Positions 4,716-37,982 of a stretch of 37,982 bases of DNA are shown here, piece by piece. Position numbers and translations under genes: made by a program. Below the pieces are notes generated by a model that saw nothing but the letters and a program-made list of their open reading frames with translations, ran no database searches and was not told the DNA's origin. The number at the start of each line of letters is the position of its first letter. Within the stretch, counting starts at the first letter, position 1. The stretch lies in contig CAYQDG010000004.1 in the NCBI GenBank assembly GCA_964416245.1, positions 1 through 37,982 of the forward strand, given 5' to 3'. This DNA is from Candidatus Woesearchaeota archaeon (GTDB taxonomy: Archaea; Nanobdellota; Nanobdellia; Pacearchaeales; GW2011-AR1).

Positions 4716-5816
4716 ATGGCTAAGAAAAAAGATGATTCAGGGGAGTTGTTTTCGTCTCTTTCTGATTCTGCATTAGAAGGAAAAAAATTCGAGAAGGATT
4801 TTATAGATGTTTTGAAAATGGTTGCTCCTGGAACTAGTTTGAGAGTTGCTTTGGATGATTTGTTGAGAGCAAAGATGGGGGCGTTGGTTGTTTTTGATAA
4901 CGGGAGTGTTGATTCTTTAATTGAAGGAGGATTTAAAATTAATTCAAAATTTAGTCCTCAAAAATTAGTTGAATTGGCAAAGATGGATGGTGCTCTTGTG
5001 GTTTCAAGGGACTCCAAAGAGATTTTATCTGCAAATACTTTGTTAGTTCCAGATAGTACTATTTTTACTAGGGAAACTGGAACTAGGCACAAAGCTGCTG
5101 AAAGAACTGCAAATCAAGCAAATACTATTGCTATTGCTGTTTCTGAGAGAAAAAATAAAATTTCTTTGTATTATGGGAAAACTTATTATCAATTGGAAAG
5201 AAGTTCGGAAATTCTTCGTAGAGCTTCAGAAACCTTACAAATTTTGGAAAAACAGAGAGATCTTTTTGATGAGTTTTTGGATGTTTTAAATTCTTTGGAA
5301 TTACAAAGGAGTTCTAGCATAAATGATGTTTGTTATGTTTTGCAAAGAGCAGAAATAATGAAAAGAATTGAGGCTATTGTTCAAAGGTATTTAATTGAAT
5401 TGGGTCGTGAAGGGATGATTGTGAGAATGAGATTGAAAGAATTAACAAGTAGTGTTCAAAAAGAAGAAGAATTGATTTTGAAGGATTATTTTGGAAAAGA
5501 ATATCCAGATTATTTGGGAATTCTTGAAAAGATGGATTTTGATTTTTTGTTAGAACCATTAAACATCTCTCGTATGCTTTTTGAAGAATTACATGATAAA
5601 TCTATTTCTCCTCGAGGATTAAGGATTTTGGGTAAAACTAATCTTTTGGAAAGGTATGTTGATTTGTTAATTGGTAATTTTGAAAATTTGGATAAGATTT
5701 TATCTGCCAAAAATGAAAGGCTTTTGGAAATATTGGAGAGTGAAGCGATGGTTAGTTTCTTTAGAGAAGAAATTTATAATTTGAAGGAGAAAGTTAGTCT
5801 TGGTAGGAGTATCTAA
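4716..5816 (+). CDS. disA: DisA-type diadenylate cyclase (DNA integrity scanning protein, DAC domain)
   Basis: DAC-domain motifs GALVVF, DGALVVS and TGTRHKAAERTA. The ~360-aa length with helical and C-terminal domains is typical of DisA. Confidence 0.85.
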   Translation: MAKKKDDSGELFSSLSDSALEGKKFEKDFIDVLKMVAPGTSLRVALDDLLRAKMGALVVFDNGSVDSLIEGGFKINSKFSPQKLVELAKMDGALVVSRDSKEILSANTLLVPDSTIFTRETGTRHKAAERTANQANTIAIAVSERKNKISLYYGKTYYQLERSSEILRRASETLQILEKQRDLFDEFLDVLNSLELQRSSSINDVCYVLQRAEIMKRIEAIVQRYLIELGREGMIVRMRLKELTSSVQKEEELILKDYFGKEYPDYLGILEKMDFDFLLEPLNISRMLFEELHDKSISPRGLRILGKTNLLERYVDLLIGNFENLDKILSAKNERLLEILESEAMVSFFREEIYNLKEKVSLGRSI

Positions 5817-6083
5817 CCACCACTAAAGTGGATGCTCGCCGACACAGTCGCTTCGCATAATGGTTAGTTTCTTTAGAGAAGAAATTTATAATTTGAAGGA
5901 GAAGGTTTCTTTGGGAAGGAGTATCTAACCACCACTAAAGTGGATGCTCGCCGACACAGTCGCTTCGCATAATGGTTAGTTTTTTCAGGGAAGAGATTTA
6001 TAATTTGAAGGAGAAGGTTTCTTTGGGAAGGAGTATCTAACCACCGATAAATCGGAAGCTCATCCAAGCAGTGATTTTGAATA
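5748..6083 (+). repeat. three tandem 112-bp units, each the last 22 codons plus stop of disA and 43 nt of downstream sequence
   Basis: The units start at 5748, 5860 and 5972. All encode MVSFFREEIYNLKEKVSLGRSI*. The 43-nt tails of units 1 and 2 are identical, and the unit 3 tail differs at about 15/43 positions. Confidence 0.95.
5820..5831 (+). other. post-stop hairpin CCAC-TAAA-GTGG, repeated at 5932-5943 and as CCGA-TAAA-TCGG at 6044-6055
   Basis: A 4-bp stem with a 4-nt loop begins 4 nt after each TAA. Two base pairs covary between copies. Confidence 0.6.
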
Positions 6084-6139: not shown

Positions 6140-7180
6140 ATGTTAACGGAAAAGGAAAATGAAGAAATTAGGGAGCATTTAGATAGAGCACAAAATCCCT
6201 TATTTTATTTTGATAATGATCAGGACGGACTATGCAGTTATTTATTGATTAGGCGGTTTTTGGAAAGGGGAAATGGGGTGCCTGTTAAAACTTCTCCATT
6301 GGATATGAGTTATTTTAGAAGAATTAATGAATTTGAACCAGATTATGTTTTTATTTTAGATCAGCCTTCGGTTTCAACTGAATTTTTTGAAGCATTGCAT
6401 GAAAAAAATATTTCTATTGTTTGGATTGATCACCATGATAATGATTTAGACACTATTCCAGATTATGTAAATTATTATAATCCTTTGTTTAATGAAAGCA
6501 AAACGAATGAACCGGTTGTTGATTTGTGTTATAGATTTGTTAATAGGAAAGAAGATTTGTGGTTGTTAATTGTGGGATGTATTGCTGACAAATATATGCC
6601 TGAAGAATATTCGGATTTTTTGAAAAAGTACCCTGATTTGGGGATAAATTCTAAGAGTCCTTTTGAAATTTTGTATAATTCAGAAATTGGAAAAATGTCT
6701 CGGATGATTGGAACGGGTTTGAAAGATAGAACGAGTTTAGTTATGAAGATGATTCGTTTTTTAATCAAAGCTAGAAATCCTTATGAGGTTTTGGAAGAAC
6801 AAATTGATAACCATGAGATGCATAAGAATTTTAATAAAATTGATGAGAGATTACAAAAATATTTGAAAAAAGCAAGAGAAGAATATAGTGAAGGAAAAGT
6901 TTTGTTTTTTACTTATTCTGGTGCAACGAGTATGAGTGCAGATATTGCAAATAGGTTAAGTCATGATTATCCTGGAAAAGTGATTGTTGTGGCTTTTATT
7001 CGAGAAGGCCGTGTTAATTTATCTATTAGAGGAAAAGGAGTTAGAGAAAAAGTTTTGAAAGTTTTGGAATTTTTTCCTTTATCTACAGGTGGAGGACATG
7101 AAGATGCTGTTGGAGCGCAGATTGATTCTGATCAATTGGAAGAGTTTGAAAAGAAATTGAAGGAAGAGATTGGAGATTAG
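6140..7180 (+). CDS. DHH/DHHA1 family phosphoesterase (RecJ/NrnA-like)
   Basis: Motifs DNDQDGLCS, DHHDND and, in the C-terminal DHHA1 region, GGGHEDAVGAQ. Confidence 0.8.
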   Translation: MLTEKENEEIREHLDRAQNPLFYFDNDQDGLCSYLLIRRFLERGNGVPVKTSPLDMSYFRRINEFEPDYVFILDQPSVSTEFFEALHEKNISIVWIDHHDNDLDTIPDYVNYYNPLFNESKTNEPVVDLCYRFVNRKEDLWLLIVGCIADKYMPEEYSDFLKKYPDLGINSKSPFEILYNSEIGKMSRMIGTGLKDRTSLVMKMIRFLIKARNPYEVLEEQIDNHEMHKNFNKIDERLQKYLKKAREEYSEGKVLFFTYSGATSMSADIANRLSHDYPGKVIVVAFIREGRVNLSIRGKGVREKVLKVLEFFPLSTGGGHEDAVGAQIDSDQLEEFEKKLKEEIGD

Positions 7181-7340
7181 GGATTGGGAGTTGTTTAAAT
7201 AAAATTAATCTCCTGAAAGTAATAAATGAAAAATAGTAATACTTAAAAATAATTAATTCTTAATTTTTTTATGAGAAGTAAATCATTAGTCTATAATTGG
7301 AATTTTTGTATGGACTTAGTTATTACTTCTATTAAAATAG

Positions 7341-12636: not shown

Positions 12637-12708
12637 GGGCTCGTAGTTCAACGGATAGAATAACAGGTTTCGGCCCTGTTGGTTCGGGTTCGAATCCCGG
12701 CGAGCCCT
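12637..12708 (+). tRNA. tRNA-Arg (anticodon UCG), no intron, CCA not encoded
   Basis: Hand-folded cloverleaf. Acceptor stem GGGCUCG/CGAGCCC, D stem GUUC/GAAU, anticodon stem ACAGG/CCUGU with loop UUUCGGC, T arm UCGGG-UUCGAAU-CCCGG. Confidence 0.9.
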
Positions 12709-12710
12709 TT

Positions 12711-13598
12711 TCATTCTATTTTTTTTATTGAAGATAAATCTCTTATTGCTTCAATAAAGGAATTGGTTTTTTTTGCTGGTTCACCTAATGAAAAAATTAT
12801 ATAATTTAATTCATGTTCTTTAGCTTTTTTATGTGCAGTAATAATATCTGCTTCTGTTAATCTTTTTTTATTGTAGGCCACCAAAATTTTTTCTTCTCCC
12901 TTTTCTTTTACTTTTAATGTTAAATGTCCTTTTGAAAAACCCATGATGTCTGTTATTTCCATTTGATTTTTTATTAAATTTTCTTTTACAGTATTAAAAA
13001 ATTTCTCATTTTTTTTCTCTTGAGATTTTCTTTTTGTTGAAGTTTTTTTCTTGGTAGTTTTTTTCTTTGTTATTTTTTCTTCTTTGGGTTTTTCTTCTTT
13101 TATTTCGGGTTTTTTTTCAGTTTCTTCTAAATGAATAATTTCTTTTGTTTCTTCCTTGGGTTTTTCTTCACTTAGTTTATATTCGTTTTCTTTTGATAAA
13201 AAATATCTCCAAATTATTTTATTTTCTTTTTCGAAAGGTTTTGCAAAATCTTTAATCGATCTTAGTGCTACTCTAATTGAGGGTTCTTGTTCTATATCAA
13301 CTAAAAATTTTTTTTCTTTTAATAAAAGAAATGCATCTTTTTCTTTTGATTTTAAATATTCTTGCGCATATTTTTCTAATTGTGCTTCTGTTCCTTCCAC
13401 ATAATATACGGGACTTCCTCCAACTTTCATGTTTGTTATTTTAATCCTTTTTTGAGAAAGTAATTCAGAAAGAAAAGCTGAACCAAAAATTGAATCCATC
13501 TTTATCTCTCTAGAAATTTGAACAGGCAAACTTGGCCCGTTTGTTTTTAGAAAATCCATAATTGATTCTTTTATTGGTTTGGTATCTTGTGTTGGCAT
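12711..13598 (-). CDS. hypothetical protein with an N-terminal winged-helix-like region, a Lys-rich linker and a C-terminal alpha/beta domain
   Basis: 295-aa ORF. The N-terminus (DFLKTNGPSLPVQISREI...GGSPVYYVEG) looks wH-like. A KKKTTKKKTSTKRK linker follows. The family assignment is not secure. Confidence 0.45.
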   Translation of the reverse strand: MPTQDTKPIKESIMDFLKTNGPSLPVQISREIKMDSIFGSAFLSELLSQKRIKITNMKVGGSPVYYVEGTEAQLEKYAQEYLKSKEKDAFLLLKEKKFLVDIEQEPSIRVALRSIKDFAKPFEKENKIIWRYFLSKENEYKLSEEKPKEETKEIIHLEETEKKPEIKEEKPKEEKITKKKTTKKKTSTKRKSQEKKNEKFFNTVKENLIKNQMEITDIMGFSKGHLTLKVKEKGEEKILVAYNKKRLTEADIITAHKKAKEHELNYIIFSLGEPAKKTNSFIEAIRDLSSIKKIE

Positions 13599-13793: not shown

Positions 13794-14480
13794 TCAAGGT
13801 TTAGTCCATTTAATTTCATAATAAGTTATTTGGTTTTCTTCATCGACAATTGCTAAAAGAACATTTTTGTTTGTTGAATGGGCCACTCTATTTTTTGCTG
13901 CGAATTCATGCCAGGTTGTTTTGTTGTTTTCTTGATCTGTGAAAACAATCCATTTGGAGTGTTCGGCACCAGCTTTTTTCCCTTTTTCATAAACTCTAAA
14001 TTCTGCTCCGAATTTTAGAGCAGTTTTTACAACATATCCTTTTATTCTTAAATCTTTGAATACTCCATATTTTATTGGAAATTTTTTATCAATTTTTGTA
14101 AATTTTTTCATGATTTCATCTGAATCCAAAATTTTATTATTTTGATAAATTTCCATTTTTCCGTTTTGTACTAAAAATAATCCTTCAGAAAGAGTATATT
14201 TTATTTTGTCTTCAACATGTTCTCCAAATGCAGATTCTTTGCAATACGAATAAGCTTTTTTTGAATTACTTGTTAAAGTATTTCCAATTAAATGTGTAAT
14301 TATTTCTTTTTCTGGATATTCTGTTTTTTCTTTTTTGTCTGAATTGCTTTTATCAGAAGTTTTCTTTTTTTTAGAAGAGATTTTCTTTTTAGAAGACTTT
14401 TTTGTTGTTGTTTTTTTCTTAGTTACAGGCTTTTTTTTACTTTTTGCTTTTTTGTCCTTCCCAAATATAAATAGTGTCAT
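13794..14480 (-). CDS. endA: tRNA-splicing endonuclease EndA with an N-terminal Lys-rich extension
   Basis: C-terminal catalytic domain YGVFKDLRIKGYVVKTALKFGAEFRVYEKG...AEHSKWIV...K. About 45 aa of KKKxxKKK precede a core of about 180 aa. Confidence 0.8.
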   Translation of the reverse strand: MTLFIFGKDKKAKSKKKPVTKKKTTTKKSSKKKISSKKKKTSDKSNSDKKEKTEYPEKEIITHLIGNTLTSNSKKAYSYCKESAFGEHVEDKIKYTLSEGLFLVQNGKMEIYQNNKILDSDEIMKKFTKIDKKFPIKYGVFKDLRIKGYVVKTALKFGAEFRVYEKGKKAGAEHSKWIVFTDQENNKTTWHEFAAKNRVAHSTNKNVLLAIVDEENQITYYEIKWTKP

Positions 14481-14544
14481 ATTATTAGATTGGGAATATT
14501 CTTTATAAGGTTTTTTGGAATTTTGAATTTGCTTAATATTCCTT

Positions 14545-14617
14545 CCCTCAAACTCTCACTTTGCTTTCTGAAACATTTGTGGTTGGGAGAAAGCAAAGTG
14601 TTCGCCCCGACCACCAG
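14545..14617. repeat. hairpin element copy 1: 13-bp perfect stem, conserved 18-nt loop and a TTCGCC..GACCACCAG tail
   Basis: Arms are 14557-14569 and 14588-14600. The loop is GAAACATTTGTGGTTGGG. About 64 nt are shared with 37828-37891 (about 5 mismatches). Confidence 0.85.
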
Positions 14618-14735
14618 TTAAATTCTTGAATTCCCCTAGATAGTCAATTAGCTTAAATCTAATTGTTATCTCTGCTGGGATTTTTAGCAAATTCATAACA
14701 AAAACCTATTAAAACTTTGATATTTTTATTTTTCT

Positions 14736-17198
14736 ATGGCAGAAATTGATTTTAAATCTATTGAGGAGAAATGGCAGAAGAAATGGGAAGATGAAAAAGT
14801 TTTTGTATCTAGTAATAAAAGTTCTAAACCTCGATATTATGTTCTTGAAATGTTCCCTTATCCTTCTGGTTCTGGTTTGCATATGGGGCATGCATGGAAT
14901 TATACCATTGGGGATATTTTGGCTCGGTTCAAGATTATGAATGGATTTGAAGTTCTTCATCCGATGGGTTATGATTCTTTGGGTTTGCCTGCAGAAAATG
15001 CAGCTATTAAAGATGGAATTCATCCTGAAATTTATACAGAAAAAGCTATTAAAAATTATATTAGACAACAAAAATCTCTGGGTTTGACTTATGATTGGTC
15101 TAGAGTATTGAAAACTTCTTCTTCGGAATATTATAAATGGGACCAATGGATTTTTTTGAAAATGTTTGAAAAAGGTTTGGCTTATCAAAAAGAATCAAGT
15201 GTGAATTGGTGTCCTTCATGTAAAACTGTGCTTGCAAATGAACAGGCGCAAAATGGGGTTTGTGATAGGTGCGATTCCAAGGTTGAAATTAAATATTTGA
15301 AACAATGGTTTTTGAAGATTACTGATTATTCTGATGAACTTTATGAGAATTTAGATAACATGGAAGGTTGGCCTGAAAGAACGCGGGCAATGCAGAGGCA
15401 TTGGATTGGAAAAAGTTATGGGACTGAAATTGATTTTGAGATTGAGGGTGAAAAATGGCCTGTTTTTACAACGAGGCCAGACACAATTTTTGGAGTTACT
15501 TTTGTTGTTGTTTCTGCTCAGCATAAAAAACTTTGGGAATTGGTTACTGATGAGCAGAAGAAAGAGGTTGAGAAATTTTTAAAGAAGGTGGGGTCTGTTA
15601 GTGAGAAGGATATGGCTGATTTAGAGAAGGAAGGAGTTTTTACTGGTTCTTATGCTATCAATCCTGCTAATGGTGAAAAGGTTCCAATTTATGCTGGGAA
15701 TTTTGTTGTTCACGATTATGGTTCTGGAATGGTTATGGCTGTTCCTGCACATGATAAAAGAGATTTTGAATTTGCAATGAAATATGAAATTCCTATCCGA
15801 GTTGTTATCAATCCACATGATTTTGATATTGATGAAAATAAATATTATGATGTCTATACGGGCGAAGGTACTTTGATGAATTCTGAAGAATTTAATGATC
15901 TTGATAATGAAGAAGCTAAAAAGAAGATTACTGAATGGCTAGATGATAGGAGTGTTGGGCGTGAGACTTTGAATTTTAGATTAAGAGATTGGGGAATTAG
16001 CCGTCAGAGATATTGGGGAACCCCAATTCCAATCATTCATTGTGATAAATGTGGGACTGTACCCGTGCCAGAAAAAGATTTGCCTGTTGAATTACCAAAA
16101 AAAGTTAAATTTGGAGAGGGTAACCCTTTGGAAACTAACGAAGATTGGATTAATGTTAAATGCCCTAAATGTGGTGGAGAAGGTAAAAGAGAGATTGAGA
16201 CAATGGACACTTTTGTTAATTCTTCTTGGTATTTTATGAGATATTGCGATCCAAATAATTCTGAGGAAATTTTTGATAAGGAAAAAGTTAATTTTTGGTG
16301 CCCAGTAGATTCTTATATTGGGGGTGCTGAACATGCTTGTATGCATTTAATTTATTCTCGGTTTTATACAAAGTTTTTGAGAGATATTGGTTTAATTAAT
16401 TTTGATGAACCTGCTATTAGTTTATTCCATCAAGGAATGCTCCATGGGGAAGATGGGGAAAAGATGAGCAAATCTAAAGGGAATGTTGTTCTCCCTGAAA
16501 CAGTTTCTGATATATATGGGATTGATACTGCCCGATTTTTTTTGTCTAGTTTGGCTTCCCCCGATAAAGATATTGATTGGGATGAAAAGGGCATTGTTGG
16601 TAGTTTAAGATTTGTTAAAAAAATATGGGATTTTGTTGAAGATTTTAAAGGTGGCAAGAATTCAGAAGAAGTTGGGGTTAAAGTTAATAATGTAATTAAG
16701 AATGTTACAAGTTATTATGGTAATTATCAATATAGAAAAGCTACAATTGAATTGAGAGAATTATTTGATTTGATTATTGAAGAGGGTTGTTCTTCAAATA
16801 CATTGGCGACTGCATTAAAATTATTGAATCCTATTTGCCCACATATTACCGAAGAGATGTGGGAGAAATTGGGGAACAAAGAGTTTATTTCTATTAGCGA
16901 ATGGCCTAAATTTGATGAGAATAAATTGAAGGTTCAGGGGAAGAAAGTTGATTTGAATGCAAAAGTTATTGAAAATGTGGGAGATATGCTTGAAAGATAT
17001 GAAGAAAAGAATGGAGAAATAAAAACAGTTTATTTGTATGTCATCCCTTTTGAACTTTCGAAATATAATATTGACGAATTGGAAAAGAAGTGGAAGAAAC
17101 TTGTTGAGGTTTATTCGGTGAAGGATTCCGATAAATATGATCCTGAAAATAAAAGCAAAAAGGCTAGGCCTGGGCTTCCAGGAGTTTATTTCGAGTAA
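14736..17198 (+). CDS. leuS: leucyl-tRNA synthetase, bacterial-type architecture
   Basis: N-terminus YVLEMFPYPSGSGLHMGHAWNYTIGDILARF...GYDSLGLPAENAAI, CP1 editing motif TTRPDTIFG, and KMSKS. The 820-aa length fits the bacterial type. Confidence 0.92.
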   Translation: MAEIDFKSIEEKWQKKWEDEKVFVSSNKSSKPRYYVLEMFPYPSGSGLHMGHAWNYTIGDILARFKIMNGFEVLHPMGYDSLGLPAENAAIKDGIHPEIYTEKAIKNYIRQQKSLGLTYDWSRVLKTSSSEYYKWDQWIFLKMFEKGLAYQKESSVNWCPSCKTVLANEQAQNGVCDRCDSKVEIKYLKQWFLKITDYSDELYENLDNMEGWPERTRAMQRHWIGKSYGTEIDFEIEGEKWPVFTTRPDTIFGVTFVVVSAQHKKLWELVTDEQKKEVEKFLKKVGSVSEKDMADLEKEGVFTGSYAINPANGEKVPIYAGNFVVHDYGSGMVMAVPAHDKRDFEFAMKYEIPIRVVINPHDFDIDENKYYDVYTGEGTLMNSEEFNDLDNEEAKKKITEWLDDRSVGRETLNFRLRDWGISRQRYWGTPIPIIHCDKCGTVPVPEKDLPVELPKKVKFGEGNPLETNEDWINVKCPKCGGEGKREIETMDTFVNSSWYFMRYCDPNNSEEIFDKEKVNFWCPVDSYIGGAEHACMHLIYSRFYTKFLRDIGLINFDEPAISLFHQGMLHGEDGEKMSKSKGNVVLPETVSDIYGIDTARFFLSSLASPDKDIDWDEKGIVGSLRFVKKIWDFVEDFKGGKNSEEVGVKVNNVIKNVTSYYGNYQYRKATIELRELFDLIIEEGCSSNTLATALKLLNPICPHITEEMWEKLGNKEFISISEWPKFDENKLKVQGKKVDLNAKVIENVGDMLERYEEKNGEIKTVYLYVIPFELSKYNIDELEKKWKKLVEVYSVKDSDKYDPENKSKKARPGLPGVYFE

Positions 17199-18007: not shown

Positions 18008-18481
18008 ATGATTGATAAAAAAGAGTTGATAAAAGAGGTTGAGAAAGAATTCAATCGGGTTAAAGAGGAATTGGGTTTTGAAGCTACTTTGGAAGAGTTA
18101 GAAGACGCATTCAAAATTTTTGATGGCGTTGTCTCCTCTGAGTTTGTAAGTACAAGTTTTTCAAGACAACTTTGTGCTCGTATTTTGGACAATTATATGG
18201 GGTGGCATAGTTATTTGAATGGTGTTTTAGTTCCTAATTCTGGGTTTTTAGCGAGTCAAACTGAAGCAAATTTATTTAATAATCAAGAAGATAGAGAAAT
18301 GATTTGGAAAATGATTAAGAAGACTATGGAATATTCCACCACCCATTCTTTGATTGGTTTGACAAAAAATAAAGAACTTGAAGCGCAATTTATTGACGAC
18401 ACTTTGAATTATTGGAAAGAAGTTTTTTCTCCTAATTTGAAAATGATTCTTTTGAGGGCTAATGAAGCTTGGAAGAAATAA
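18008..18481 (+). CDS. hypothetical protein
   Basis: 157-aa ORF in the coding direction of its neighbours. No family recognised. Confidence 0.5.
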   Translation: MIDKKELIKEVEKEFNRVKEELGFEATLEELEDAFKIFDGVVSSEFVSTSFSRQLCARILDNYMGWHSYLNGVLVPNSGFLASQTEANLFNNQEDREMIWKMIKKTMEYSTTHSLIGLTKNKELEAQFIDDTLNYWKEVFSPNLKMILLRANEAWKK

Positions 18482-18519
18482 GAAGTTAATTTTATTAACT
18501 GATTTTTCTTAAAAAATTT

Positions 18520-19599
18520 ATGAGTAGAGAGGTCTTAATTGAAAAGTCTGCAGTTTCAAGAAAGAATTATCATAAATATTGGTTTATAATTTTGTTTGCT
18601 TTAGGAATTGGTTTTTTATCTTTATATTTTATTTTGAATTATGTTCATAAAGAAGAAGTTTCTTTTACTTGTGGAGATGATACTCCTTATGGAAATTGTT
18701 CTGAAAATAAACCTTATTATTGTGATGGGGGAAATTTGATTAGAAATATGGAAAACTGTGGTTGTCCTGAAATTTTTTCTGAATTTGGAGAAAATTGTTC
18801 TTTTGATAATTATGAGAATGGAGAAAAAGTTACTTTGAATTATGTGATTAATGGTAGAGAAAAATATTTGGATTTTTATTTTCATCAGGCTATTTTAGAT
18901 TATCTTGAAGATTTACCTCGTTCTCTTTCCTATTCTAATGGAGAAAATTTTTCTCGAAGGGATTTTAAATTGATGAAAATTGATGATGAATTACAAAGAG
19001 AGATGTTGATGCCTTTAGTTGTTGAAATTCAAAATTTGGCTCCGTGGTCGAAGGATTTACAAGCAAAAATTGCCATTAGTCTTGTTCAAAATATTCCTTA
19101 TGGTAATCCGGATTTTGTAGATGTTCTTGAAGGCAGATTTACTGTCCCTTTATCAAAATATCCTTATCAAACACTTTCTAGTTGGGAAGGTTCATGTGAA
19201 TGCAAATCTGAATTATTGGTTTTTCTATTGAGGGAATTAGGATTTGAAACTGCCTTGTTTTATTATCAAGATGAAAATCACGAGGCAGTTGGAATTAAAT
19301 GTCCAGAAAAATATTCCTTGGAAGATACTGGTTTTTGTTTTGTTGAAACTACTTTACCTGCTCCTATTTCTTATAGTAAAGGAAGATATCAAGGTCCAGG
19401 AGGAAGTTCTGTTTTGGGAGATTATTCCGAATTAATTATAATTTCTGAAGGAGAAAGTTTGAGTAAAAACTTAGATGATTATTCAGATGCAAGAGTTCTT
19501 GGAAGGTTGGTGAATAAAGTTGATAAAAAAGGATATGTTAATTATTTTGAGAAAAAAAAATTGGATAATCTGAGGGAAAAATATGGGCTTATTTATTAA
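18520..19599 (+). CDS. membrane-anchored protein with a Cys-rich region and a transglutaminase-like cysteine protease core
   Basis: One N-terminal TM helix. The core WEGSCECKSELLVFLLRELGFETALFYYQDENHEAVGIKC matches the Cys...His pattern of the transglutaminase-like superfamily. Confidence 0.5.
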   Translation: MSREVLIEKSAVSRKNYHKYWFIILFALGIGFLSLYFILNYVHKEEVSFTCGDDTPYGNCSENKPYYCDGGNLIRNMENCGCPEIFSEFGENCSFDNYENGEKVTLNYVINGREKYLDFYFHQAILDYLEDLPRSLSYSNGENFSRRDFKLMKIDDELQREMLMPLVVEIQNLAPWSKDLQAKIAISLVQNIPYGNPDFVDVLEGRFTVPLSKYPYQTLSSWEGSCECKSELLVFLLRELGFETALFYYQDENHEAVGIKCPEKYSLEDTGFCFVETTLPAPISYSKGRYQGPGGSSVLGDYSELIIISEGESLSKNLDDYSDARVLGRLVNKVDKKGYVNYFEKKKLDNLREKYGLIY

Positions 19600-28833: not shown

Positions 28834-28882
28834 ATAGTCCCATATACCAAAATATTAAAAATAAAAGAATTTATTAATTTTT

Positions 28883-30235
28883 ATGGTAAAAATAGGCTTA
28901 GAAATTCATGGGTATATTAATACTCATGAAAAATTATTTTGCACTTGTAAAGTTGGGCATGGTTTAAAGCATGCTTTACCAAATACAAATATTTGTCCTA
29001 TTTGCACTGGTCAGCCTGGATCTAAACCGTTATTGCCGAATAAGGAAGCTGTAAAAAAAGCAATCCAAATAGCTCTTGTTTTAGGATGCAAAGTTTCAAA
29101 AAAAATGCCTTGGCAGAGAAAACATTATTCTTGGCCAGATTTACCCAAAGGTTTTCAATCTACTATGTCTGGACCTCATTCAATTCCAAATGGAATAAGT
29201 GGAAATTTTATGGGAATTGGCATAACAGAATGTCATTTAGAAGAGGATCCCGCTGCCTGGAATCCAGAAACAGGCGAAATAGATTATAATCGTTCAGGTT
29301 CACCTTTAATTGAAATTGTTACTGATCCGGATTTTAAATCAAAAGAAGAGGTTGTTGATTGGTTAAGGAATCTTTTGGCAGTTTTGGATTATATTAAAGT
29401 AATTGATAGGAATTTCGGAGTTAAAGCAGATGTGAATATTTCTATAGGGGGAGGGAAAAGGGTTGAAATAAAAAATGTTAATTCTTTAAGAAAAATTTCT
29501 GATGCAATAGATGTTGAGGTAGATAGGCAAGAAAAAGATTTGCCAAAAATACAACAGACAAGGTCTTATGATGAAAAAGCAGGTACAACAAAATTGATGA
29601 GAACAAAAGATAATGCTCAAGATTATCGTTTTATTAGTGATCCTGATTTACCTGTTTTGGAAATTTCTGAAGAATGGATTGAAAAATTAAAAAAATCATT
29701 GCCTGAAACTCCTCAAGATAAATTAAAAAAATTAATTGAAGAATATAAAATTGAAAAAAAATATGCTGAAATGCTCATAAAAAAATTAAGTCTTGTTGAA
29801 CTTTTTGAAAAAACTCTTGAAAAAATAAAACCAGAAATTGCAATTCCTTGGGTAACTATAGAACTCTTGAGTGTTGCTAATTATAATAAATTAGATGTTG
29901 ATGAAATGAAAATTGATTCAAATCATTTCATTGAATTATTGGAAGCCATTCAGGAAAATAAAATAATAGAATTAAAAGCGAAGGATATTTTAAGAAAATG
30001 GGTTCCCAATTCTATTTCTCCCTCTGAAGAAATAAACAATAGTTTAACAATTAGTGGTGAAGAAGTAAAGAATATGGCAAAAGAAGTTATTTTAGAAAAT
30101 TCAAAAGCAGTTGAGGATTATAAATCAGGTAAAACTTGGGCGATTAATTTTTTGATTGGGCAAATAATGAAAAAATCTAATAAGAGAGCTGATTTTAAAT
30201 TTGCCAAGAAAATTTTGGAGGATTTATTGAAATGA
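28883..30235 (+). CDS. gatB: Asp/Glu-tRNA amidotransferase subunit B
   Basis: GLEIHGYINTHEKLFCTC, PNTNICPICTGQPGSKP, PDLPKGFQ and HLEEDPA motifs with a C-terminal YqeY-like tail (NFLIGQIMKKS). Confidence 0.8.
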   Translation: MVKIGLEIHGYINTHEKLFCTCKVGHGLKHALPNTNICPICTGQPGSKPLLPNKEAVKKAIQIALVLGCKVSKKMPWQRKHYSWPDLPKGFQSTMSGPHSIPNGISGNFMGIGITECHLEEDPAAWNPETGEIDYNRSGSPLIEIVTDPDFKSKEEVVDWLRNLLAVLDYIKVIDRNFGVKADVNISIGGGKRVEIKNVNSLRKISDAIDVEVDRQEKDLPKIQQTRSYDEKAGTTKLMRTKDNAQDYRFISDPDLPVLEISEEWIEKLKKSLPETPQDKLKKLIEEYKIEKKYAEMLIKKLSLVELFEKTLEKIKPEIAIPWVTIELLSVANYNKLDVDEMKIDSNHFIELLEAIQENKIIELKAKDILRKWVPNSISPSEEINNSLTISGEEVKNMAKEVILENSKAVEDYKSGKTWAINFLIGQIMKKSNKRADFKFAKKILEDLLK

Positions 30236-32834: not shown

Positions 32835-33098
32835 ATAAATTTTTTGTTTTAAAAGTTTATAAATATTTTTACTGTTTAGTGGTTATTAGTTTTATAAAAT
32901 TTTAAAAAGTTTGAATCCCCCAATTATTTATTGATAAATGATAGAAGAAAAATATAAAATTTTCCAGCTACCATTTAACAAAGTAAAATGATAGAAGAAA
33001 GTGAACCTCCGCTTAAGTATGAGAACGAAGATGATTTGTTTGAATTAGATAATGAGTTGGAAGAGTAATTTTATAAGTGGAAAAGTTATTAATTTTTT

Positions 33099-33908
33099 AT
33101 GGTAAAAATAGTTGCTATGGGGGATCCTCATGGAAATATTAATAAAATAAAAAAAATTCCTTTGAGAAATTCTGATTTTATTTTGATTACGGGTGATTTT
33201 GGTAAAGCTGATTTTGCAAGAAAAAGATTTTTTGAAAATGTAGTTAGAAAAGACAAAGGTTTAGAAGAATTAGAATATACAGCAAAAGATAATAAAAAAG
33301 CATATATGGAAATTTTTGGTTCTACAATTGACATTTTAAAATATACTTCTAAATTTGCTTCAACATATTCTATTTTAGGAAATGTTGGAATGGACATGGT
33401 TTATGATTCTAATGTCAGAAAACAGGAAAAAAAATATGGGTTAAAGTTACCTTCTTTGCGTCAAAATATGAACAAAATAAAAGATTTTTATTTTGTTAGA
33501 AATGTTGTTAGAAATCTTGGAGGGTTGAGAGTGGGTTTCTTAGAATATTTTGTAGATGTTTGTTGGTTTGAAGAATTTGGGGTTAGGGATAAAAAAAAGA
33601 TTAAAAAAGCAAAAAAGGAAACAGCTAAGGCTAAAAAAATTTTAAAGAATTTTAAAAATTTAGATATTTTAGTTTGTCATCAACCTCCTTTTGGATATTT
33701 AGATAAAGTTTCTGGAAAATATGGCGCTCCTAAAAATTATATTGGCAAACATGCAGGAAGCAAAGTTATTTTAGATTATATTAAAAAATATGAACCAAGA
33801 TATGTGTTTTGTGGCCATATTCATGAAGGGGAAGGAAAAGTAAAAATGGGTCAATCTGAAATTTACAATTTAGGTGTTGCTGGACATAAAATAGTCAATT
33901 TCAAATAA
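33099..33908 (+). CDS. calcineurin-like metallophosphoesterase
   Basis: Motifs GDPHGN, TGDFG, GNVG and GHIHEG. It also has a K-rich insert (KKKIKKAKKETAKAKK). Confidence 0.8.
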   Translation: MVKIVAMGDPHGNINKIKKIPLRNSDFILITGDFGKADFARKRFFENVVRKDKGLEELEYTAKDNKKAYMEIFGSTIDILKYTSKFASTYSILGNVGMDMVYDSNVRKQEKKYGLKLPSLRQNMNKIKDFYFVRNVVRNLGGLRVGFLEYFVDVCWFEEFGVRDKKKIKKAKKETAKAKKILKNFKNLDILVCHQPPFGYLDKVSGKYGAPKNYIGKHAGSKVILDYIKKYEPRYVFCGHIHEGEGKVKMGQSEIYNLGVAGHKIVNFK

Positions 33909-34181: not shown

Positions 34182-34244
34182 TTGTAATTTGCTGAAATAA
34201 ATTTTAAATATAATAAATGAAATTTTAACAATGATTTATTTCTT

Positions 34245-34283
34245 TTAGCCCACCCTCCCACCCAATACTTGTCAAAATTTCTA
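34245..34283 (-). other. second copy of the G-quadruplex-containing intergenic element (GGGTGGGAGGGTGGG on the minus strand, 34249-34263)
   Basis: Four G3 tracts, all with 1-nt loops. The flanks are homologous to 7738-7775. Confidence 0.7.
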
Positions 34284-34382
34284 TTAAATTATGGATATGC
34301 TTCTGGGGGAAATTTTAAATTTTATTTTAATAAAATTCTGCATCTCAATTAATTTTATAAGTTATGTTTGTTTTTATTTTGA

Positions 34383-36235: not shown

Positions 36236-36436
36236 GAAAGATAAAAATTGTTCGCTCTGCTCAAGTTGGTAAAATTTAATTATCCGCTCCGCTAGGTGAA
36301 ATGGGGAAGGGATAGGTTATGGAAGAAATGCTTTAGGGGAATTTTTGGGAAATGTAATTATAATTGGATATTTTGATTTCATTATTTTTGGATTTTATTG
36401 GAAAACTATTTAATATTATGATTTTAATTTAATATT

Positions 36437-36733: not shown

Positions 36734-36784
36734 TTATCCCAAAAAAGTTCTAAAATATATTAATGCATTTTTCTTAATTTTTTT

Positions 36785-37033
36785 ATGGAAAGAAAACCAT
36801 TTATAGCTTCGTTTTTGCTGTTTGTTTTTGGTTTGGTGTTTATTGGTTTATTTAGAACTAATTTAACTGGGCAAGTTGTTGCTGAAACAAAGGGTGAGGC
36901 GGCTTATCATGGTTTACTTTCGGGAGTTTATTTGTATTTAGGATTATCTTTTGTTTTATTTGCAATAATTGTTTTCATTTATTTTAAATATAGAGAAGAG
37001 ATTAATGATTGGTTTGTTGGAAATGGGGAATAA
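36785..37033 (+). CDS. small two-TM membrane protein
   Basis: 82-aa ORF with two hydrophobic helices. Confidence 0.45.
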   Translation: MERKPFIASFLLFVFGLVFIGLFRTNLTGQVVAETKGEAAYHGLLSGVYLYLGLSFVLFAIIVFIYFKYREEINDWFVGNGE

Positions 37034-37063: not shown

Positions 37064-37696
37064 ATGAATTCATTTGATCAACGCAAGAAAGATATTTTGT
37101 CAAAGGAAGATAAATCTAGTAAGGGGAAATGGGATGAAAGAATTATTGCTCTTTGTGATAAATTAAATTCTTTTGAGAATTATTATTCTACTTCTTCTTG
37201 TTCTGGAAGAATTATTGTTATGAAAGATGAGGAACAGAAAGGTCCTGGTTTATTTGAATTTGTTAGTCATGAATTGGTTGATTTTGATGAGTTTTTTAAC
37301 GAATTTTCTTCGAAATTGCTCACATCCCAAATTGCTGAAACGCGTCCCACCCTCCCAAATAGCAAAGAAAGTTCTAAAAAAATTAATTCTAAGAATAATT
37401 TGAAATTTAAACAGGATTCTGTAATTTTGCATGTTGCTTGTAGGGAAATTTTGGATGCGAAGAAATTATTAGATAAGGGATTGAAATCTGGTTTTAAGAA
37501 ATCTGGGATTATTAGTTTGGGAAAAAATATAATTGTTGAATTGAATTTGAGTGATAAACTTGAATTTCCTTTGATTGAAGAGGGGAAATTGTTAGTTGGG
37601 GAGGAATTTTTGAAGAAAGTTTTGGAGAGATCCAATGATAATTTGGAAAAGGGGTGGGAGAGGATTGAGGATTTGATAAAAGAGATTGGGAAGTAG
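37064..37696 (+). CDS. taw3: tRNA wyosine-derivative methyltransferase Taw3/TYW3 family
   Basis: Motifs STSSCSGRI and SVILHVACREILDAKKLL...GFKKSGI. I prefer the ATG at 37064, which has a TATA-like TAATTATTTAAG about 25-30 nt upstream. Confidence 0.75.
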   Translation: MNSFDQRKKDILSKEDKSSKGKWDERIIALCDKLNSFENYYSTSSCSGRIIVMKDEEQKGPGLFEFVSHELVDFDEFFNEFSSKLLTSQIAETRPTLPNSKESSKKINSKNNLKFKQDSVILHVACREILDAKKLLDKGLKSGFKKSGIISLGKNIIVELNLSDKLEFPLIEEGKLLVGEEFLKKVLERSNDNLEKGWERIEDLIKEIGK

Positions 37697-37722
37697 ATAT
37701 TGGATGTTGAGGATTGGAAGTT

Positions 37723-37746
37723 GGGGGATTTGGGAGGGATTAGGGG
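37723..37746 (+). other. canonical G-quadruplex motif 27 nt downstream of the taw3 stop
   Basis: GGGGG-ATTT-GGG-A-GGG-ATTA-GGGG. Confidence 0.65.
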
Positions 37747-37827
37747 AAGATAATTTACTTTGCTTTTCGCAAAGAATTGATATGAATAAAATTTCAATTA
37801 TTTATTTTTTGTTGAAAGTTATTCTAT

Positions 37828-37891
37828 CCCTAAAACTCTCACTTTACTTTCTGAAACATTTGTATTTGGGAGAAAGCAAAGTGTTCGCTCC
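37828..37891. repeat. hairpin element copy 2
   Basis: Arms are 37840-37852 and 37871-37883 with one A/C mismatch, which would be a G-U pair on the minus strand. The loop is GAAACATTTGTATTTGGG. GTGTTCGC follows. Confidence 0.85.
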
Positions 37892-37898
37892 TTTTCTC

Positions 37899-37957
37899 AA
37901 TCCTGTCATCAAAACATTTGTAATTGGGGATGCCAGAATATGTTCGCCAACCACTTG
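37899..37957. repeat. hairpin element copy 3: same loop, unrelated stem sequence
   Basis: Arms 37899-37910 and 37929-37940 pair at 9 of 12 positions. The 18-nt loop is AAAACATTTGTAATTGGG. The tail is TGTTCGCCAACCAC. Confidence 0.6.
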
Positions 37958-37982
37958 CGACATGGTGTTCCTCTATTAGTCA

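Follow-up and report, generated by a model that had tools for sequence, protein, structure and literature searches.

We analysed a stretch of 37,982 nucleotides, positions 1 to 37,982 of contig CAYQDG010000004.1 (assembly GCA_964416245.1, Candidatus Woesearchaeota archaeon), which we call the window, and a family of hairpins within it that combine a nearly constant 18-nt loop with stems of varying sequence. Among the window's open reading frames (ORFs) are many aminoacyl-tRNA synthetases, Gat subunits, EndA and TYW3. A Pfam search of 37 window ORFs returned housekeeping functions only, with no transposase, integrase, Cas or Orc1, and ARAGORN and Rfam 15 at the gathering score detected only a tRNA-Arg (12637-12708) in the window. 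The hairpins occupy two loci: copy 1 lies between the divergent endA and leuS promoters, and copies 2 and 3 stand in tandem, 58 nt apart, downstream of TYW3. An earlier note, made from the sequence alone, had described three hairpins on the plus strand in these settings, and our re-check of the sequence places all three at the same coordinates. The features of the two loci are listed below; the carrier is the part of an element outside the hairpin module, and handles beginning with L denote loci in the DNA used for comparison.

14521 to 14698, plus strand: complete inserted element of copy 1, 178 bp, between the endA and leuS promoter regions (alignment A3)
14521 to 14542, plus strand: left terminal inverted repeat of copy 1, TTTTGAATTTGCTTAATATTCC
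14548 to 14601, plus strand: hairpin module of copy 1, 54 nt, with the 5' segment TCAAACTCT(CAC) followed by arms and loop
14557 to 14569 and 14588 to 14600, plus strand: arms of the copy 1 hairpin, 13 of 13 bp paired, around the loop at 14570 to 14587
14602 to 14615, plus strand: conserved tail TCGCCCCGACCACC, part of the carrier and not of the hairpin module
14638 to 14671, plus strand: second palindrome of the carrier, AGATAG-T-CAATTAG / CTAATTG-T-TATCT, with homology across copies
14677 to 14698, plus strand: right terminal inverted repeat of copy 1, GGGATTTTTAGCAAATTCATAA, including a T5 run
37697 to 37982, plus strand: left part of an insertion of ~385 bp carrying copies 2 and 3, cut by the window end, with the rest taken from L001
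37805 to 37830, plus strand: left carrier module of copy 2, TTTTTTGTTGAAAGTTATTCTATCCC
37831 to 37884, plus strand: hairpin module of copy 2, 54 nt, with the stem type of copy 1 and one A.C mismatch
37840 to 37852 and 37871 to 37883, plus strand: arms of the copy 2 hairpin, containing this single A.C mismatch, around the loop at 37853 to 37870
37892 to 37943, plus strand: hairpin module of copy 3, 52 nt, with a different stem, AATCCTGTCATC / GATGCCAGAATA (in alignment A7)
37899 to 37910 and 37929 to 37940, plus strand: arms of the copy 3 hairpin, 9 of 12 pairs Watson-Crick, around the loop at 37911 to 37928
37944 to 37982, plus strand: tail of copy 3, TCGCCAACCAC, and the start of its right carrier module (..TTCCTCTATTAGTCA), truncated by the window end

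The loop motif AAACATTTGTNNTTGGG is matched exactly three times in the window, and five times if up to two mismatches are allowed, compared with 0.48 expected. The heptamer TGTTCGC occurs four times (0.6 expected) and follows each of the three hairpins; the fourth occurrence, at 36249, has no loop or hairpin upstream. The loop had been described as invariant and followed by a conserved TCGCC..ACCAC tail. Its length of 18 nt holds in all three copies and its sequence is near-invariant, but positions 1, 12 and 13 vary. Likewise, TGTTCGC is common to the three tails, while ACCAC was found downstream of copies 1 and 3 only. Copies 1 and 2 are plain homologues (90% identity across 72 nt; 89 and 84.6 bits, respectively, with our covariance model R1), and within the window a different stem is supplied by copy 3 only. 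In a comparison with chance that the earlier note had proposed, the arms of copy 3 proved to be complementary at the fixed 18-nt spacing to a degree that 0.17% of window positions equal or better (P=0.0017), but its folding energy was no better than that of shuffled sequences (z +0.5 and +0.9).

Copy 1 is contained in a longer piece of DNA that its relatives lack. Syntenic loci were gathered via LeuRS homologues (72-87% LeuRS identity), and the spacer between endA and leuS, 255 bp in the window, is element-free and only 53-79 bp long in L035, L039, L041 and L043. The empty site in L035, L039 and L041 reads ...GGTTTTTTGGAA^CAAAAACC... with nothing between (a caret marks a junction). In alignment A3 the conserved flanks ...AAGGTTTTTTGGAA and CAAAAACCTATTAAAA... 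bracket a clean block of 178 bp at 14521-14698, with both divergent promoter regions intact on either side. The termini of this block form an imperfect inverted repeat, with 18 of 22 positions matching between TTTTGAATTTGCTTAATATTCC and the reverse complement TTATGAATTTGCTAAAAATCCC; about 1 in 3000 random window placements with the same slop matches as well (P ~3e-4). These termini make up the closing helix of the predicted fold.

The tandem copies 2 and 3 are likewise located in additional DNA. We gathered the corresponding loci of relatives via TYW3 homologues, and found that the spacer between TYW3 and the next ORF measures 417 bp in L001 but 35 bp in L048 and L050 (gene tables, alignment A6). 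L001 is the same sequence as the window, recovered from a JGI metagenome, and thus represents the window lineage; it extends beyond the window, which stops 35 nt past copy 3. The left module of copy 2 is homologous to the left ends of two elements described below, L025a and L025b (TTTTTGTTGAAAAT.TTCCATCCC). The sequence 3' of copy 3 (..TTCCTCTATTAGTCAATTA-loop-TAATTGTTTTT) is homologous to the region 3' of copy 1, and its continuation in L001, ATTATTGTAAAAAATAATTGTTTTT, to the right module of copy 1. The end of the window and of the contig (37982) lies within copy 3's right module (..TATTAGTCA^ATTA..), in agreement with the suggestion that copies might mark contig ends, and several metagenome contigs similarly stop ~100 nt or less from a copy, as would fit a repeat that breaks assemblies.

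Searches of other DNA recovered further copies. An exact-pattern scan of metagenome contigs returned both window loci and one new locus, L025/L029, where a complete unit (L025a) lies between scpB and a GT2 glycosyltransferase gene; the spacer between these genes is 265 bp in L025 but 79 bp in L053 and L054. Thus, at each of the three loci open to this test the element is present here but missing from close relatives, which indicates that the copies are insertions. A scan of a genome collection with one genome per species gave 17 loci, 16 of which were chance single matches in unrelated bacteria and archaea. The one true match, L022, comes from a metagenome-assembled genome (MAG) of Nanoarchaeota and consists of two perfect 55-nt tandem units beside a tRNA gene, sharing the loop but having a different stem (TCTATTCTCT / AGAGATAAGG) and TGTTCGCC at each junction. 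A relaxed loop search of relatives' DNA added copies in L048 (intergenic, before a DHH gene), L039/L040 (intergenic, before an arginase gene) and L050/L051, all with the stem (G)TTCAATTCT / AGAATTGAA(C), their loops carrying 1-3 changes. In total, the window and its population account for at least 5 loci, to which L022, L039, L048 and L050 add further copies. The distribution is patchy: some relatives have no hairpin copy, and others no more than one per locus of 18-22 kb. In the covariance-model scan that the earlier note had proposed, model R1, built from alignment A7 (below), recovered all members (75-89 bits) from 272 kb plus 42 kb of related DNA and nothing beyond them. Among viral contigs the first pattern had no match, and the degenerate loop pattern had one match, without arms, which we attribute to chance.

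The structure of the elements became apparent from a second copy on the L025 contig, L025b (L025:4699-4813), which was detected by blastn with the L025a element and lacks the hairpin. Its left module joins the tail directly (..TTTTCCATCCC^TCGCCCCGACCAACC..; junction CCATCCC^TCGCCCC), and the piece absent from it is exactly 54 nt, TAAAATTCTCAC-arm-loop-arm-TGT. The comparison of filled L025a with hairpin-less L025b was used to set the bounds of the copy 1 module. The number of modules is accordingly 0 in L025b, 1 in copy 1, L025a and L048, and 2 in copies 2-3 and in L022. The tail TCGCCCCGACCACC is conserved in L025a and L048, and retained in L025b right after CCATCCC. The second palindrome is homologous to TAGTCAATTA...TAATTG in copy 3 (L001), L025a, L025b and L048, and its apical pairs vary while staying complementary (G/C, TT/AA, AA/TT, AT/AT). 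The termini of L025a and L025b, TTTGTTGAAAA / TTTTCAACAAA, contain perfect cores of 11-12 bp, and in the predicted fold they, too, pair up as the closing helix. L025a is flanked by GAGAGAAG and GGGGGCAAG, an imperfect repeat of 8-9 bp, with one GGGGGCAAG present in the empty site, and L025b by CTATAAAAT and CTGTAAAAT, a direct repeat matching at 8 of 9 positions. These two copies may therefore have a target duplication of ~9 bp.

A rearrangement was seen on the same contig. The RpoL-RadA segment is inverted in L025 relative to two relatives (L025:3528-4700 compared with L053:12896-14907), and three small genes are missing; L025b is positioned at one breakpoint of the inversion, and a duplicate of ~30 nt of the RadA 3' end at the other.

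One copy has entered a protein-coding sequence. The L050/L051 copy (82 bits with model R1 in L050) lies within the coding sequence of TYW3 and keeps the frame, and the window contains a remnant of the element:

37313 to 37393 (approximate bounds), plus strand: in-frame remnant of the element in the TYW3 coding sequence, 27 aa, ..CAAATTGCTGAAAC^GCGTCCCACCC..., with the hairpin centre deleted

In the protein alignment A4 the insert occupies a single site and comprises 41 aa in L050, 27 aa in the window and 27 aa in L045. It is absent from three other orthologues, including P0123 from GCA_964429545.1, the assembly that also has the closest LeuRS match (87%). DNA alignment A5 shows that window ~37313-37393 equals the L050 insert minus the hairpin centre, and in L050, the window and L045 the sequence downstream of the insert stays in frame. 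The lengths of the inserts, 123 and 81 nt, are both multiples of three, which suggests translation rather than splicing. A sequence match in the PDB locates the insert between two conserved blocks; the AlphaFold model of TYW3 has a mean pLDDT of 38.5 and is unusable for placing it. The intergenic copies contain 1-6 stops in nearly all six frames, and an open frame is present only in L025a and in the in-gene copy of L050. The stop-rich intergenic copies argue against a general coding palindrome.

The claim that the hairpin is a selected structure holds on the wider set of copies. Alignment A7 contains nine sequences, the window copies and six more distinct copies from related DNA, and 12 of its 13 stem pairs have changed on both sides. 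The stem cells pair in 85.8% of cases, whereas sliding the 3' partners by 1-3 columns lowers this to 41-56%, and none of 500 column shuffles reaches the observed covariation. Pairwise identity averages 0.86 in the loop, compared with 0.53-0.59 for the arms and 0.33-0.48 for the flanks. The conserved loop together with the co-varying arms suggests that the hairpin is maintained as a structure. Two stem cells are non-canonical, T.G in L022, favouring the plus strand, and A.C in copy 2, favouring the minus strand; as they point to opposite strands, they carry no strand signal.

The empty orthologous sites, the unrelated loci and the in-frame copy in TYW3 show that the elements are inserted DNA. 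[quoted passage not shown] The elements are 115-178 bp in size, or ~210 bp with two modules, and have no Pfam-bearing ORF. In the proposed anatomy terminal inverted repeats would close the element, and a pyrimidine-rich left module ending in ..YCCC would be followed by 0, 1 or 2 hairpin modules of 52-55 nt, with arms of 10-13 bp and the 18-nt loop RAAAYRWTTGTNNKTGRG. The right side would consist of the tail TCGCCC..., the second palindrome CAATTA..TAATTG and a T-run. The inverted repeats and the possible ~9-bp target duplications suggest that a transposase with its gene elsewhere may mobilise the whole element in trans. The module number would shift by tandem duplication and deletion between TCGCC-type direct repeats, as in boxB. 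Loop and structure would be kept most likely since only copies with an intact hairpin keep propagating, and recognition of the hairpin might act on extruded single-stranded DNA or, upon co-transcription, on RNA.

Several observations weigh against the MITE-like interpretation. Neither the window nor the relatives' loci contain a transposase or a matching full-length insertion sequence (IS), and copy 1 has no detectable target duplication relative to the empty site in alignment A3. The outer 9-10 nt of the termini differ between copy 1 (GAATTTGCT) and L025a, L025b and copy 2 (TTGTTGAAA), which would be unusual if a single transposase binds all of them. The internal loop is the best conserved part, whereas classical MITEs conserve their termini. 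The exact-pattern scans gave only three metagenome loci and one other genome, so a high copy number is not demonstrated. Finally, every copy is co-oriented with an adjacent gene, and this constant orientation would also fit a role at the RNA level. The element is thus atypical: its internal loop is best conserved while stems and outer termini drift, and its module is gained or lost precisely at ..CCC^TCGCC...

An alternative, which we hold to be unlikely, is that the 54-nt hairpin itself is mobile. It would be a single-strand element that uses the ..CCC^TCGCC.. junction without target duplication and has the carrier as its preferred target, and its enzyme would read loop sequence and stem shape, like the Y1 transposases of IS200/IS605 or the REP/RAYT system. 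Filled and hairpin-less carriers indeed differ by the exact module at CCATCCC^TCGCCCC with no duplication, and modules are found in tandem as well as in different carriers. Recognition of structure plus loop would lead one to expect a conserved loop and arms that are free in sequence yet paired, and the co-orientation of copies with neighbouring genes fits a lagging-strand bias. A second subfamily may share the junction, judging from L039 and the following feature of the window:

34244 to 34294, plus strand: possible hairpin-less remnant of the second subfamily, low confidence, TTTAGCCCACCC^TCCCACCCAATACTTGTCAAAATTTCTA..TAATTATGG

This second filled/empty comparison is weak, however: the remnant matches the flanks of the L039 element at ~75% by eye and was not recovered by blastn at E<=0.05. 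The gene tables of ~500 kb list no Y1/HUH transposase (PF01797-type) or RAYT gene, and IS200/IS605 elements depend on a pair of dissimilar end hairpins. Module numbers of 0, 1 or 2 would arise without an enzyme if there is slippage between the TCGCC-like repeats on either side. Copies 1 and 2 and L025a share hairpin and carrier at 93% identity, which indicates that the two parts were copied together. There is a small chance that the 52-55-nt module, inserted and excised precisely at the ..CCC^TCGCC.. junction, represents structure-guided mobile DNA of a new and extremely small class in DPANN archaea, which a novel archaeal enzyme would recognise by the 18-nt loop on a sequence-free stem; alternatively, the host may have co-opted the loop as a selected RNA or protein-binding motif.

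It is improbable, in our estimate, that the elements are duplicated genes of ~115-180 nt for a small structured non-coding RNA, composed of a closing helix, hairpin 1, hairpin 2 and an oligo-T terminator, whose loop binds a protein or another RNA. The covariation in hairpin 1 would be expected of such a gene, as would the termini that are different yet complementary in copy 1 and L025a/b, the compensated apical pairs of hairpin 2, the T5-T6 run that follows it and the constant orientation relative to neighbouring genes; folds of the whole elements have z = -2.4 to -2.8. Yet inverted repeats of mobile DNA can mimic this RNA-type covariation, and the two non-canonical stem cells disagree on the strand. 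The hairpin is dispensable in L025b. No conserved promoter-like sequence accompanies the element, its upstream flanks being unrelated, and a copy and its remnants are predicted to be translated in frame within TYW3. Neither an Rfam family nor a tRNA matches the hairpin elements: even at E<=10 the hairpin regions gave chance matches of 12-23 bits only, compared with gathering scores of 50-208. The earlier suggestion of an RNA or a protein-recognised cruciform, if taken as a stand-alone RNA gene or a regulator of tRNA-related genes, is not supported in view of the empty orthologous sites in close relatives and the copy in a coding sequence.

A protein-recognised DNA site regulating the tRNA-related neighbours (an operator, cruciform, origin box or attC-like recombination site) is very improbable: it would accommodate a conserved block of 17-18 nt inside an inverted repeat, the position of copy 1 between two divergent promoters and the loose resemblance of GTTCGCC to the attC core GTTRRRY, but it is largely refuted by relatives that have the same gene pair without the element, other copies adjoin unrelated genes (scpB and GT2, rpoL and tspO, DHH, arginase) or lie within a coding sequence, no inverse core GGCGAAC is present before the hairpin, no integrase, cassette array, orc1/cdc6 or cas gene is nearby, and the tRNA-related surroundings that the earlier note thought possibly meaningful reflect a window simply rich in tRNA-related genes.

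Other known structures were compared with the copies and rejected. An integron attC site is incompatible with GTTCGCC, which does not fit RRRY, with the lack of GGCGAAC upstream of any hairpin and with the lack of an integrase in the window. The tandem copies have a CRISPR-like geometry, with a 24-nt repeat and a 31-35-nt spacer, but TGTTCGC is common to the 'spacers', which pair across the 'repeat', the units of L022 are identical throughout, and the window has no cas genes. Motifs of C/D-box and H/ACA RNAs, split or permuted tRNAs and bulge-helix-bulge (BHB) introns are absent by eye on both strands; a BHB is also unfit because the module junction lies 9-12 nt away from the stem. A promoter in which the loop would be the TATA box and B recognition element and GTTCGCC the transcript start has a fitting spacing, but one copy lies in a coding sequence and the hairpin is optional. 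A loop-tail pseudoknot of 9 bp can be drawn for copy 1 (GUGGUUGGG pairs with CCCGACCAC), but it is lost in L025a, L048 and copy 3. The consensus fold of a downstream 'sRNA' has zero consensus pairs.

Further repeats and motifs were noted in the window and its relatives. The spacer of ~200 bp that contains the fourth TGTTCGC (36236-36436, from a metallo-beta-lactamase-fold gene to the next ORF) is 7 bp in L048 and present in L050; it has no hairpin and could not be tied to the hairpin-element family. A second palindromic repeat, AAATTTCC-GAACGTGGTTC-TGGAAATTT, is absent from the window but occurs in relatives at L048:7497-7524, L050:9189-9244, L053:15403-15443 and 6932-6963, L054:14013-14046 and L045:2025-2055, indicating that these genomes hold several hairpin-repeat families. 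Purine-rich repeats of the GATTGGGAG type are located at or shortly after the 3' ends of two genes unrelated to each other, a DHH-family gene (7152-7193) and TYW3 (37668-37750), and after TYW3 in a relative as well (L045:1990-2060). Window 5748-6083 comprises three tandem 112-nt units (100, 95 and 78% identity), each with a CCACCACTAAAGTGG hairpin and GCTCGCCGACAC, which duplicate the 3' end of a DisA-like gene (4716-5816) together with the adjoining downstream sequence. Lysine-rich coding repeats of the KKxxAKKK type appear as long direct and inverted DNA repeats in the C-terminus of a TFE-alpha-like protein (1351-1533), in ORF 12711-13598 (13011-13106) and in the EndA N-terminus (14365-14440). 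The motif TTAATTTTTTTATG is found upstream of and including start codons at 7229-7287, 18476-18522, 28851-28895, 33067-33111 and 36741-36801 (families D13, D17 and D18), and may represent a shared promoter or initiation context. LeuRS (14736-17198) contains the Pfam editing domain PF13603 at 216 bits, a domain typical of bacterial-type LeuRS, and all its close homologues come from MAGs labelled Pacearchaeota or Nanoarchaeota.

A hairpin with covariation near tRNA genes at first resembled a new RNA, and probably turns out to be selfish DNA. A modular palindromic repeat in a tiny DPANN genome would reshape intergenic spacers and break assemblies, and appears to have added 27-41 residues to a tRNA-modification enzyme, paralleling repeats of Rickettsia and pneumococcus. 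The conserved loop on free stems offers an 18-nt bait for finding the protein that recognises the element.

Among archaea, DPANN genomes have the highest MITE densities (PMC11602168). Since catalogues already list MITEs at high density for some DPANN genomes, the kind of element would be known, and the family itself new. Classical MITEs, including those of Sulfolobus and haloarchaea, resemble the archaeal element in their size of 115-180 bp, non-coding nature, terminal inverted repeats, occurrence at unrelated loci, presence or absence between relatives and highly base-paired fold. In contrast to them, the termini vary here and the internal loop is conserved, no parent IS is seen in the fetched loci, and target duplication is inconsistent. 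REP/BIME-RAYT repeats and the PATEs derived from IS200/IS605 are also hairpin-forming extragenic repeats, single or clustered. As at our hairpin-module junction, they show no target duplication, and structure-dependent recognition is plausible for both. REP stems, however, are conserved and preceded by a fixed tetranucleotide, while the stems described here vary; no RAYT, TnpA or TnpB gene is seen in the fetched loci, although the junction CCC^TCGCC does recur. The in-frame palindromic elements of Rickettsia (RPE; Ogata et al. 2000, as described in PMC10969869) similarly appear as palindromic selfish elements of a reduced, host-dependent genome, located in frame inside a conserved housekeeping-type gene, in our case TYW3, with the extra residues kept in several lineages. 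They differ in that one gene is affected here, the intergenic copies are stop-rich, and sequence and host are unrelated. The modular A-Bn-C BOX repeats of Streptococcus pneumoniae and S. suis, boxA-(boxB)n-boxC (PMC3049150), are likewise short, non-coding, interspersed and MITE-like, with no dedicated transposase nearby. In them, too, complementary end modules close the structure around a self-folding middle module that occurs in 0, 1 or several tandem copies, and insertions are intergenic and occasionally coding. Unlike boxB, the archaeal middle module keeps its loop and not its stem, the copy number is apparently low and target duplication is doubtful. The likeness is one of analogy only, as a sequence relation is not expected with an archaeal host; by that analogy, the pneumococcal BOX is the closest functional analogue of the archaeal element.

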